This document shows, one piece after another, positions 3,693 through 5,187 of a stretch of 6,101 nt of DNA. The notes beneath the pieces were generated by a model. The model saw nothing but the letters and a program-made list of their open reading frames with translations. It ran no database searches and was not told the DNA's origin. Numbering within the stretch: the stretch's first letter is position 1; each line of letters opens with the position of its first letter. This stretch comes from a virus. Its lineage: Duplodnaviria; Heunggongvirae; Uroviricota; Caudoviricetes. A program made the position numbers and the translations under genes. The DNA lies in the IMG/VR virus record IMGVR_UViG_2534681978_000014; one strand, given 5' to 3'.

Positions 3693-5187
3693 TCTTTCAC
3701 ACATTATTGCCGCAGCATTCAATGAACCGCTGCTTCTGGAGCCCGCCTATGCGCGGGTTTTCTTTTGCGCGCTCGGGCGCGAGATGGGGGCAGCAAGTCT
3801 TTCGGTACCACAACAGCAGGTACAGCTTGATGCACCCGGAATGCTGGCTGAAACGGACGAGTACATGGCCGGAGGTAAACGACCGGCCCGTGTTTACCGG
3901 GTGGTGAACGGTATTGCTGTACTGCCGGTGACAGGCACGCTGGTGCACCGGCTGGGGGGTATGCGGCCATTTTCCGGAATGACAGGCTATGACGGCATTG
4001 TCGCCTGTCTTCAGCAGGCAATGGCAGATAGCCAGGTGCGGGGCGTACTGCTGGACATTGACAGTCCGGGCGGGCAGGCCGCCGGTGCGTTTGACTGTGC
4101 TGACATGATTTACCGCCTCCGTCAGCAGAAGCCGGTCTGGGCACTGTGCAATGACACGGCCTGTTCTGCAGCCATGCTGCTGGCGTCGGCCTGCTCCCGA
4201 CGGCTGGTTACCCAGACATCCCGTATCGGCTCCATTGGTGTGATGATGAGCCATGTCAGCTATGCCGGTCATCTGGCGCAGGCCGGTGTGGATATCACGC
4301 TGATTTACTCAGGGGCGCACAAGGTGGATGGCAATCAGTTTGAAGCGTTGCCGGAAGAGGTTCGCCAGGACATGCAGCAGCGGATTGATGCGGCGCGCCG
4401 GATGTTTGCCGAAAAAGTGGCGATGTATACCGGTCTGTCTGTTGATGCAGTCACGGGAACAGAGGCCGCCGTTTTTGAAGGTCAGTCCGGCATTGAGGCC
4501 GGGCTGGCGGATGAATTAATCAATGCGTCGGATGCCATCAGCGTGATGGCTGCGGCGCTGAACACACATGATACAGGAGGCACTATGCCGCAATTAACTG
4601 CAACGGAAGCTGCCGCGCAGGAGAACCAGCGAGTGATGGGGATCCTGACGTGTCAGGAAGCGAAAGGACGTGAACACCTTGCCACGATGCTGGCAGGACA
4701 ACAGGGCATGAGCGTTGAACAGGCCCGGGCGATTCTGACCGCGGCAGCACCACAGCAGCCGGTGGCATCCACGCAGAGTGAAGCCGATCGCATTATGGCG
4801 TGTGAAGAGGCTAAAGGTCGTGAACAACTGGCGGCAACGCTGGCGGCGATGCCGGAGATGACGGTGGAAAAAGCCCGCCCGATCTTGGCTGCCTCACCGC
4901 AGGCGGATGCCGGGCCCTCACTTCGTGATCAGATCATGGCCCTGGATGAGGCAAAAGGGGCAGAAGCGCAGGCTGAAAAACTGGCGGCCTGCCCGGGAAT
5001 GACCGTGGAGAACGCCCGGGCTGTGCTGGCTGCGGGATCAGGTAAGGCCGAACCGGTCTCTGCATCCACAACCGCCCTGTTTGAACATTTCATGGCGAAT
5101 CATTCACCGGCAGCGGTGCGGGGTGGCGTGTCACAGACGTCAGCAGACGGTGATGCGGACGTGAAAATGCTCATGGCCATGCCATGA
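3682..5187 (+). CDS. C: Head maturation protease / scaffold protein (lambda gpC-like, S49 peptidase family); GTG start assumed
   Basis: 501-aa ORF. The N-terminal region matches lambda gpC (FNEPLLLEPAYARVFFCAL; NGIAVLPVTGTLV; MTGYDGIV; GAFDCADMI; KPVWALCNDTACSAAMLLASACSRRLVTQT; GSIGVMM; ITLIYSGAHKVDGN; TEAAVFEGQSGIEAGLADELIN). The presumptive catalytic Ser is at codon 162 (nt 4165-4167). The start is a GTG at 3682, preceded by AGAGGAG at 3665-3671 with a ~10-nt spacer. It overlaps the B 3' end by 11 nt. Confidence 0.88.
   Translation: MRRNLSHIIAAAFNEPLLLEPAYARVFFCALGREMGAASLSVPQQQVQLDAPGMLAETDEYMAGGKRPARVYRVVNGIAVLPVTGTLVHRLGGMRPFSGMTGYDGIVACLQQAMADSQVRGVLLDIDSPGGQAAGAFDCADMIYRLRQQKPVWALCNDTACSAAMLLASACSRRLVTQTSRIGSIGVMMSHVSYAGHLAQAGVDITLIYSGAHKVDGNQFEALPEEVRQDMQQRIDAARRMFAEKVAMYTGLSVDAVTGTEAAVFEGQSGIEAGLADELINASDAISVMAAALNTHDTGGTMPQLTATEAAAQENQRVMGILTCQEAKGREHLATMLAGQQGMSVEQARAILTAAAPQQPVASTQSEADRIMACEEAKGREQLAATLAAMPEMTVEKARPILAASPQADAGPSLRDQIMALDEAKGAEAQAEKLAACPGMTVENARAVLAAGSGKAEPVSASTTALFEHFMANHSPAAVRGGVSQTSADGDADVKMLMAMP
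4575..4580 (+). promoter_or_regulatory. Internal Shine-Dalgarno sequence (AGGAGG) inside the C coding sequence, positioned for translation initiation at ATG 4585 (Nu3-like scaffold)
   Basis: AGGAGG is a perfect anti-SD complement, with a 4-nt spacer to an in-frame ATG. In the C frame it encodes the residues TGG in a linker-like segment. Confidence 0.55.
4585..5187 (+). CDS. nu3: Nested scaffolding protein (lambda Nu3-like), translated in frame from an internal start within C; ~200 aa
   Basis: The internal ATG at 4585 is in frame with C and is preceded by a canonical AGGAGG at 4575-4580 (4-nt spacer), a site that has no obvious coding reason to be there. The downstream sequence (ENQRVMGILTCQEAKGRE...GMSVEQARAILTAAAPQQ) matches the lambda Nu3 core as I recall it. 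Lambda Nu3 is likewise encoded in frame within the 3' third of C. Confidence 0.6.
   Translation: MPQLTATEAAAQENQRVMGILTCQEAKGREHLATMLAGQQGMSVEQARAILTAAAPQQPVASTQSEADRIMACEEAKGREQLAATLAAMPEMTVEKARPILAASPQADAGPSLRDQIMALDEAKGAEAQAEKLAACPGMTVENARAVLAAGSGKAEPVSASTTALFEHFMANHSPAAVRGGVSQTSADGDADVKMLMAMP
4627..5040 (+). repeat. Three tandem, diverged copies of a ~45-aa scaffold motif (period ~47-50 aa, ~141-150 nt) within the C/Nu3 C-terminal region
   Basis: Protein-level copies: QRVMGILTCQEAKGREHLATMLAGQQGMSVEQARAILTAAAPQQ; ADRIMACEEAKGREQLAATLAAMPEMTVEKARPILAASPQAD; LRDQIMALDEAKGAEAQAEKLAACPGMTVENARAVLAAGSG. Shared pattern: IM-x3-EAKG-x-E-x5-LA-x3-GM(S/T)VE-x-AR-x-(I/V)L-x-A. The copies are diverged at the nucleotide level. 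Confidence 0.75.

Follow-up and report, generated by a model that had tools for sequence, protein, structure and literature searches.

An ancient triplication of a unit, predicted to be helical, in the head protease and predicted scaffolding protein genes of a phage-21-type virus

The head protease gene in a 6,101-nucleotide stretch of Caudoviricetes DNA (IMG/VR record IMGVR_UViG_2534681978_000014, the whole of which is hereafter called the window) contains, towards its 3' end, three tandem copies of a unit of about 43 amino acids. On sequence comparison this is the Tri1/Tri/Tri3 box triplication known from phage 21, and it is not new. The triplication is ancient, and each unit has been kept under purifying selection. 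It arose from a single unit, as found in lambda and most relatives, and it predates the split of the E. coli, Salmonella, Trabulsiella and Providencia versions of the gene. The three units, predicted helical modules of about 40 residues, form most of the scaffold part of a phage-21-type pair of head genes, gp5 and a predicted gp6, where they probably serve multivalent docking.

The gene (window 3682–5187, plus strand, from the ORF listing) starts with GTG, overlapping the end of the portal gene, and its predicted product of 501 amino acids, gp5, is a gpC-type head maturation protease with a C-terminal scaffold part. An S49 domain was found at aa 146–293 (Pfam Peptidase_S49, PF01343; E = 1.6e-35; 122.7 bits, cutoff 24.9), and a PDB sequence search with gp5 returned SppA matches to this domain (E = 2e-16) and no match outside it. 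The protein also matched PHROG 53, 'head maturation protease' (E = 3e-229), and is exactly that deposited as EGR63975.1 from E. coli O104:H4. The ORFs of the window were compared with those of M81255.1, the 'Bacteriophage 21 head gene operon', to which the window is related by a constant offset of 890 nt; gp5 occupies a head-operon position, with the portal gene before it and, after it, the genes for the decoration and major capsid proteins, the latter of which is contained in the window in part only.

A nested scaffold gene is predicted within the same reading frame (4585–5187, plus strand, 200 aa). It begins with the codon for Met302 of gp5 and is analogous to phage 21 gene 6 and Nu3. A Shine-Dalgarno sequence, AGGAGG, was read from the sequence at 4575–4580 (plus strand), and the RBS annotated in M81255.1 at 5464–5468 falls at window 4574–4578. 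The predicted frame equals the 'gp6' CDS of M81255.1 (5475–6077) and the 'scaffolding protein' of OL657228; use of the ATG at 4585 to start a separate scaffolding protein, gp6, is predicted from the sequence and from the annotation of both phage 21 records. Nested starts were compared among phage 21, D2, E. albertii, Gifsy-1, Trabulsiella, Providencia, a four-unit variant, lambda and 2B8, and in all homologues examined a purine-rich, Shine-Dalgarno-like motif (AGGAGG, GAGGAGG, GAGGA or AAGGAG) was present 4–6 nt upstream of the nested ATG. In the 21 type, 15 aa separate the nested start from the first unit, and the three units make up most of the predicted scaffolding protein.

The sequence-only reading had proposed three consecutive, diverged units of about 45 aa at window 4627–5040, a segment that shares the frame of the 501-aa ORF and corresponds to aa 316–453. 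Three units were indeed found, all on the plus strand: R1 at 4627–4761 (aa 316–360), R2 at 4780–4908 (aa 367–409) and R3 at 4921–5049 (aa 414–456). Self-BLASTP of gp5 gave the identity match alone, with no internal repeat, and TRF reported no tandem repeat spanning the units, because the copies are too diverged; given this insensitivity, shuffle-calibrated Smith-Waterman alignment and a unit HMM were used. Unit-versus-unit Smith-Waterman scores were 77–102, against shuffle means of 23–25 (z = 11.8–16.3), and were reached by none of 2000 shuffles, so that the internal repeat is significant. Seventeen alignment columns were invariant in R1, R2 and R3. The unit HMM scored 87.0, 87.1 and 83.2 bits on R1, R2 and R3, respectively, values to be read with the fact that it was built from these very copies; independent support came from its detection of the single copy in lambda gpC, with 56 bits. 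A repeat search at the DNA level recovered a 46-nt core only, at 63–72% identity. The Pfam search of gp5 assigned no family to the repeat region, and PHROG 8399 ('head scaffolding protein') and PHROG 8940 (lambda Nu3, 'capsid assembly protein') gave three matches each within it.

Compared with phage 21 gene 5/6 (M81255.1), the gene showed 96.7% nucleotide identity (50 of 1506 nt differing) without indels, and 485 of the 501 amino acids of gp5 were identical; five of the 16 differences cluster in the linker at aa 291–298 and six lie in the units. The flanking genes and the gene itself (terminase, gp3, portal, gp5/6, shp and gp7) occur at one offset in both DNAs, and nested start, RBS and repeats are the same. 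M81255.1, which was published with Smith & Feiss (Gene, 1993), labels segments of its sequence "Tri1 box / Tri box / Tri3 box, function unknown". The ungapped gene alignment excludes placement of these boxes elsewhere than on R1–R3: the Tri1 box corresponds to window 4652–4755 within R1, the 'Tri box' to 4792–4902 within R2 and the Tri3 box to 4933–5046 within R3. The triplication has stood in the GenBank entry of phage 21 for decades, and is among the commonest E. coli prophage head-gene forms. The earlier reading had implied a novel expansion, and had allowed that it would be ordinary if lambda and other relatives already carried three copies. This proviso applies by half, lambda having one unit but the closest relatives all having three, and the expansion is not novel. 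The triplication has little weight as a discovery.

The sequence that the earlier reading gave for a single lambda unit was correct. It lies at aa 360–401 of lambda gpC and is 60% identical to R1. Lambda C/Nu3 and the window have in common the S49 domain, the position between portal and decoration genes, the nested scaffold frame, the AGGAGG–ATG internal start and the unit. They differ in the number of units, one against three, and in the distance from the conserved internal start to the first unit, which in lambda is a 51-aa acidic low-complexity stretch, rich in Thr, Ser, Ala and Asp. The lambda nu3 start given in RefSeq is further upstream, at 5132; the homologous conserved ATG is at nt 5342. 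Three units were also found in phage 21, D2, E. albertii, S. flexneri, Trabulsiella, Gifsy-1 and Providencia. The homologues from Trabulsiella, Gifsy-1 (STM2605, Salmonella) and Providencia are, respectively, 72, 65 and 62% identical in protein to that of the window and have the same nested start, with tails of other lengths; Gifsy-type variants carry an additional C-terminal extension, and the gene neighbourhood of Gifsy-1 is that of the window. In a neighbour-joining tree the units of these genera largely grouped by position, and R1, the orthologue of lambda's single unit, clustered with it.

Copy number was surveyed among relatives, as the earlier reading had advised, and forms with one, two, three and four units were found. 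With a threshold of at least 80% of the query covered, the three-unit form was present in about a third of the complete genomes of E. coli (1,864 of 5,426), and in every sampled full-coverage row the span was 603 nt. In the wider family, 55 of 57 long representatives had one unit, and hidden further units were sought in these 55 and none was found. In S49 protease/scaffold proteins the unit is thus widespread and as a rule single-copy, and the 21 lineage fixed three copies of it long ago. Two units occur in natural deletion variants, which are rare, and in some unrelated stand-alone scaffolds. Four units were present in 105 of the 5,426 E. coli genomes; such a variant, WP_096934546.1 (538 aa, strain STEC309), has the architecture and head operon of the window, and its own units are 74–94% identical to each other in protein. 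Between its R3 and R4, identity is 94% for protein, 79% for DNA and 49% for third positions. Since the proteins are alike and the synonymous sites diverged, the same protein consensus is enforced on each copy.

The view of the copies as old and maintained, with no part for slippage or artefact, was confirmed by their divergence and by selection. Nucleotide identity between units was 57–65%, falling to 37–43% at third codon positions, which are near saturation. The dN/dS ratio was 0.11–0.16 for R1, 0.08–0.23 for R2 and 0.08–0.25 for R3, and 0.10–0.20 for the protease domain; in four genera R2 and R3 retain the whole of the motif, with its EAKGxE, PGMT and ARxIL elements. Recent replication slippage or an assembly artefact, which has the tandem arrangement in its favour and nothing more, has next to no probability and is ruled out by the diverged copies, by the constant span in the sampled E. 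coli genomes, where deletion variants are rare, and by phage 21 having been sequenced twice independently (M81255.1, OL657228.1) with the same structure; the absence of a TRF array across the units also speaks against it. It is very improbable, too, that the repetition belongs to the DNA or RNA and not to the protein, as a series of protein-binding sites or an RNA structure would. OL657228.1 does annotate two minus-strand 'CII binding site' pattern matches in gene 6, and both occur in the window (4590–4603 and 4824–4837, minus strand). However, two such matches are expected by chance (mean 1.19; at least two in 62 of 200 shuffles), and one alone, at 4824–4837 in R2, lies within a unit. In addition, an Rfam search of the window returned no family match, and it is the protein sequence that is conserved, synonymous sites having diverged, so that a nucleic-acid element is effectively ruled out.

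Structure prediction of the repeat region, carried out with AF2 on gp6, gave every unit as helical, with pLDDT of about 67–83. The linkers scored lower, the first below 50; they are 4–10 residues long, rich in Pro, Ala and Gln, and predicted to be disordered or flexible. The pTM was 0.28, and hence no fixed arrangement of the units is predicted. A single unit was modelled with moderate confidence (pLDDT 76) as a helix at residues 2–26, a turn and a helix at 30–40; the two models disagree on the first helix, which is continuous in the single-unit model and broken in that of full gp6. Foldseek searches of the PDB with the 200-aa gp6 model and the single-unit model found nothing at E ≤ 0.001, scaffold proteins included, and a search of BFVD gave only sub-threshold matches, which fell on the C-terminal ends of other S49 prohead proteases.

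The units are followed by a C-terminal tail (5050–5184, plus strand; aa 457–501). It comprises a predicted short helix (ALFEHFMANH), a low-confidence stretch rich in Gly, Ser and Asp and a terminal helix (VKMLMAMP); the helices were placed by AF2 at gp6 residues 161–172 and 191–196, with pLDDT of 42–60. Selection on the tail is looser than on the units (dN/dS 0.31–0.63). The earlier statement that the tail does not resemble the lambda C-terminus holds as far as detectability goes: no significant similarity to the lambda tail was found in pairwise comparison (z = −0.1), and a tail profile scored 6.8 bits on it, inside the shuffle range. The tails of two related variants showed weak similarity to that of lambda (z = 3.7 and 6.4).

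A plausible mechanism for the units is multivalent binding. As predicted helical modules on flexible linkers, without fixed mutual packing, each would probably act as an equivalent and independent docking site inside the growing procapsid. Its partner would be the major capsid protein, perhaps along with the portal or further scaffold molecules. In line with this, lambda Nu3 was found in yeast two-hybrid screens to interact with E, C and itself (PMC3224144). Several docking units would make the scaffold multivalent, and the copy number, whether 1, 2, 3 or 4, would set the valency per scaffold molecule. As gp5 has the units of gp6, the same contacts would bring the protease into the shell; a few protease molecules might in this way be drawn in, later to degrade the scaffold.

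Partial parallels exist in other systems. In P2, gpO combines protease and scaffold with a common C-terminal capsid-binding part, although its protease fold and sequence are unrelated to those of the window and no tandem repetition of a module is described. The P22 scaffold is recycled, not degraded. Its protein, gp8, may resemble gp6 in having a short two-helix module of about 35–40 residues, predicted here for the single unit but with the first helix broken in the full gp6 model, in a largely flexible, elongated scaffold; by contrast to the window, where a 45-aa tail follows the last unit, gp8 carries its single copy at the very C-terminus and has no fused protease, and no sequence or Foldseek similarity was found between the two. 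The C-terminal helix-turn-helix of the P22 scaffold is its coat-binding domain, and the herpesvirus UL26/UL26.5 scaffolds bind the capsid protein via common C-terminal residues (PMC12005531). In the latter, protease and scaffold are both directed to the procapsid by a C-terminal region that they have in common (PMC12005531; PMC8508860), but protease folds and sequences are unrelated to those of the window and no tandem repetition of the common module is described. As an observation that counts against docking, the coat-binding element is mostly the C-terminal-most one in studied scaffolds, and here the tail comes after the units.

The units might instead be scaffold–scaffold association modules that oligomerise gp6 and tie gp5 to a gp6 core, leaving the tail alone to contact the capsid protein. 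This is rather unlikely, though lambda Nu3 is reported to interact with itself and with C (PMC3224144), the extreme C-terminus binds coat protein in well-studied scaffolds (PMC12005531), and a separate tail with two predicted short helices is present. The AF2 model shows no unit–unit packing, a monomer model being blind to intermolecular contacts; moreover, the tail is the least constrained part (0.31–0.63 against 0.08–0.25 for the units) and, unlike the unit, is not detectably conserved with lambda, which is unexpected for a key capsid contact. It is more improbable that the additional units are a filler of length or volume replacing the acidic N-terminal stretch of lambda, with no specific binding by units 2 and 3. 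The start-to-unit distances, 15 aa in the 21 type and 51 aa in lambda, and the functioning of lambda with one unit agree with such a role. However, units 2 and 3 hold the full motif across four genera, purifying selection acts on them as strongly as on the protease domain, and in the four-unit variant protein identity is kept as synonymous sites diverge; a filler would not be so constrained.

Taken further, multivalent docking leads to the tentative and somewhat doubtful proposal that the scaffold docks on the major capsid protein or the portal through the unit, copy number being a natural valency dial. If true, copy number would alter the number of capsid subunits bridged per scaffold molecule, and hence the scaffold stoichiometry per prohead, and the natural one-, two-, three- and four-unit scaffolds of like, lambda-like heads would be a ready-made assembly experiment. 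The forms with one to four copies that coexist in enterobacterial prophages offer a natural series on scaffold valency versus procapsid assembly, which would interest phage-assembly specialists without surprising them. A separate observation bears on the need for three units, namely that lambda builds the same kind of head with one, so that in principle three are not needed. As to how the relatives were reached, a single-protein scan of genome contigs yielded six close relatives only, and a homologue search that used the 200-aa scaffold as query gave chiefly partial proteins, through which the deletion and four-unit variants nevertheless came to light.

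The 6.1 kb of the window form a lambda-like head operon, in which a large terminase subunit gene truncated at the 5' end is followed by a W/gp3-like gene (1897-2103), a portal gene (2100-3692), the 501-aa ORF (3682-5187) and a decoration-protein gene (5224-5571). The 501-aa product, hereafter gp5, has its Peptidase_S49 domain between aa 146 and 293 (E = 1.6e-35) and is matched over its full length by PHROG 53 'head maturation protease'; nucleotides 4627-5040 are in frame with it and correspond to aa 316-453. Neighbouring head genes share 4-17 nt (terminase/gp3 1897-1913, gp3/portal 2100-2103, portal/gp5 3682-3692), the start codon of gp5 being a GTG inside the end of the portal gene. 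Overlapping head genes are the usual layout for translational coupling in such an operon. Gene 2 of phage 21 (large terminase; M81255.1 875-2803) lies at a constant offset of 890 nt, which puts its start ca. 16 nt before the window, so that ATG 165 of the ORF listing is not the true terminase start. On the same offset to phage 21, the major capsid gene should start at the 3' end of the window.

Three tandem units, R1, R2 and R3, occupy aa 316-360, 367-409 and 414-456 of gp5. Local alignments between units scored 77-102, whereas shuffles averaged 23-25 (z = 11.8-16.3) and none of 2000 reached the observed level, and 17 alignment columns are invariant across the three units. An HMM of the unit gave 83-87 bits per window copy, having been built from these same copies; in an independent test it detected a single copy each in lambda gpC and phage 2B8. 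These results confirmed the three consecutive diverged copies proposed in the sequence-only reading, whose lambda sequence, with a single unit in gpC, was also correct. Identity between units is 57-65% in DNA. TRF detected no tandem array spanning the units and a nucleotide repeat search recovered just a 46-nt core at 63-72% identity, both because the units have diverged at the DNA level. This divergence excludes an origin of the repeat by slippage or misassembly.

Comparison with phage records by tblastn retrieved 17 records at 95-99% identity, phage 21 among them. In M81255.1 ('Bacteriophage 21 head gene operon'), gene 5 is annotated together with a nested gene 6 that has its own RBS, and within gene 6 a 'Tri1 box', a 'Tri box' and a 'Tri3 box' are marked as repeat_regions, noted 'function unknown; putative'. 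Mapped onto the window, these fall at 4652-4755 inside R1, 4792-4902 inside R2 and 4933-5046 inside R3, respectively. The source paper for the phage 21 head genes is reportedly Smith & Feiss, Gene 1993. A later complete phage 21 genome, OL657228.1, labels the same gene pair 'capsid protease/scaffolding protein' and 'scaffolding protein', and an identical protein of E. coli O104:H4 str. 01-09591 is public under the name 'head-tail preconnector protein GP5'. The triplication is thus a documented feature of a very common prophage gene. Phage 21 gene 5 differs from the window gene at 50 of 1506 nt and 16 of 501 aa, with no indels. Five of the 16 amino acid differences fall at aa 291-298 (window 4552-4575; AALNTHDT versus TALNSNVR), a small hypervariable patch in the linker from the protease domain to the scaffold, just upstream of the nested start.

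That start consists of AGGAGG at 4575-4580 followed by ATG 4585 (Met302, in frame). In all homologues examined (phage 21, D2, E. albertii, Trabulsiella, Gifsy-1, Providencia, a four-unit variant, lambda and 2B8), Gly-Gly or equivalent codons keep a purine-rich Shine-Dalgarno-like motif ahead of an ATG. The predicted nested product, gp6, has 200 aa and a net charge of -8, with 14 N-terminal residues ahead of R1, linkers of 6 aa between R1 and R2 and of 4 aa between R2 and R3, and a tail of 45 aa. By contrast, lambda from its homologous ATG (genome nt 5342) encodes a Thr/Ser/Ala/Asp-rich stretch of 51 aa before its one unit and a tail of 38 aa after it. This lambda site (ATG at 2843-2845 of the lambda locus) is a perfect AGGAGG-N4-ATG, the homologue of the start of phage 21 gene 6; the RefSeq nu3 start (2633 of that locus, nt 5132) lies 210 nt upstream, and the codon aligned with it encodes Ile, not Met, in the window and phage 21. 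In lambda, too, the scaffold may in fact begin at the conserved internal ATG. Purified gpNu3 is said to be ~13 kDa, which would fit the internal lambda start.

AlphaFold2 modelling of the 200-aa gp6 with 22 aligned sequences gave a mean pLDDT of 65.8 and a pTM of 0.28. Each unit was helical (pLDDT ~67-83), with lower values in the linkers (below 50 in the first) and in much of the tail, predicting a beads-on-a-string arrangement. A single unit was modelled as two helices, 2-26 and 30-40, joined by a turn (pLDDT 76); the two models disagree on the continuity of the unit's first helix. Foldseek searches with both models found no significant match in the PDB, and the best matches in BFVD, sub-threshold, were C-terminal ends of other S49 prohead proteases.

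Among 5,426 complete E. coli genomes, matches covering at least 80% were found in 1,864 for the three-unit, window-type scaffold, in 3,201 for the one-unit, lambda-type scaffold and in 105 for the four-unit variant. The span of the three-unit form was constant at 603 nt in every sampled full-coverage row. Three units also occur in E. albertii, S. flexneri, Trabulsiella (72% identity), Salmonella Gifsy-1 (65%) and Providencia (62%). In a tree of units, all R1s clustered with the single unit of lambda, and R2s and R3s mostly clustered by position across genera, the exceptions being the R2s of Trabulsiella and Providencia, which paired separately, and Providencia R3, which stood apart. This grouping by position indicates that the triplication is older than the divergence of these versions. 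A unit profile searched against 1.84 billion representative proteins (cut-off E ≤ 0.001) retrieved 492. One unit was present in 131 of the best 150 of these, and in 55 of the 57 among those 150 with at least 350 aa; a self-similarity check found no hidden extra units in the 55. These counts point to one copy as the common state. One copy is probably also ancestral, and a large enterobacterial lineage is fixed for three.

The four-unit form is WP_096934546.1, a 538-aa protein of E. coli strain STEC309 (927-2543 of its locus), whose units are 74-94% identical in protein and 72-79% in DNA. Two-unit in-frame derivatives of the 21 type are rare: in database protein P0022 R1 and R2 are cleanly fused, R2 is missing from P0018 and P0013, and P0009 and P0011 lack 19 aa of R2, equal to a 57-nt gap in complete genomes H96 and H206. 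The in-frame deletion derivatives (these five and P0099) include a large deletion that runs from the protease domain into R2. P0144, P0216 and P0229 are unrelated stand-alone scaffold-like proteins of ~200 aa with two diverged units each; the module seems to have been duplicated independently in other lineages. A further motif, W-D/E-x-x-L-x-S-R-G-M/L, is repeated close to the C-terminus of P0144 and P0216. P0121 and P0149 are chimeric ORFs joining lambda-type gpC to the N-terminal part of portal and to an unrelated N-terminal segment, respectively; deletion in defective prophages, or misassembly, is the probable cause. P0204 resembles a Gifsy-type scaffold with nearly all Ala changed to Val and many other changes compatible with C-to-T (e.g. 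Thr to Ile/Met, Pro to Leu, Arg to Cys/Trp); this pattern fits C-to-T converted DNA, e.g. bisulfite-like reads in a public contig, and the protein is an artefact.

Nei-Gojobori dN/dS against phage 21, Trabulsiella, Gifsy-1 and Providencia was 0.08-0.25 for individual units, 0.10-0.20 for the protease domain and 0.31-0.63 for the C-terminal tail. Together with the DNA divergence between units, the per-unit values show that the expansion was rightly described as old and maintained. Identity between R3 and R4 of the four-unit gene is 94% in protein, 79% in DNA and 49% at third positions; their proteins are alike while synonymous sites have diverged, and thus each copy is held to one protein consensus. 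This argues that every unit does the same specific job rather than act as filler.

Lambda Nu3 is a scaffold required for prohead assembly and portal incorporation, which shows two-hybrid interactions with E, C and itself, and C is reported as a protease that may degrade Nu3 (PMC3224144). In other systems, a short helical scaffold element docks against the coat protein's inner face, and a protease sharing the scaffold's C-terminal region enters via the same contacts (PMC12005531; PMC8508860). Between lambda and distant S49 protease/scaffold proteins, conservation within the scaffold is limited to the unit, whose copies are independently constrained, with flexible linkers between them. The units are best read as equivalent docking modules, whose partner may be the capsid protein, the portal or a further scaffold chain; the 21-type scaffold would then be trivalent and that of lambda monovalent. 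That the units instead mediate scaffold self-association, the tail binding the shell, is a less likely alternative. A role of units 2 and 3 as length filler is disfavoured, since each unit is under its own constraint and R3 and R4 of the four-unit protein remain alike despite diverged DNA. An artefactual repeat is likewise disfavoured by the inter-unit DNA identity, which falls to 37-43% at third codon positions. A nucleic-acid element could be suspected from minus-strand matches to TTGYN6TTGY at 4590-4603 and 4824-4837, which are the 'CII binding sites' of OL657228.1; however, two matches are at chance level (mean 1.19; at least two in 62 of 200 shuffles), and this reading is also disfavoured.

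The tail had been described as unlike that of lambda, and this was borne out both pairwise, with no significant similarity between the two (z = -0.1), and with a profile of 18 related tails, which scored the lambda tail at 6.8 bits, inside the shuffle range. Tails of the four-unit and Gifsy-like variants gave weak signals against it (z = 6.4 and 3.7), and a common origin of the window and lambda tails is possible. By eye, both have a short helix (ALFEHFM in the window, ALDRLM in lambda), a Pro/Ala/Gly-rich stretch and a hydrophobic end (LMAMP and LLNTPV, respectively).
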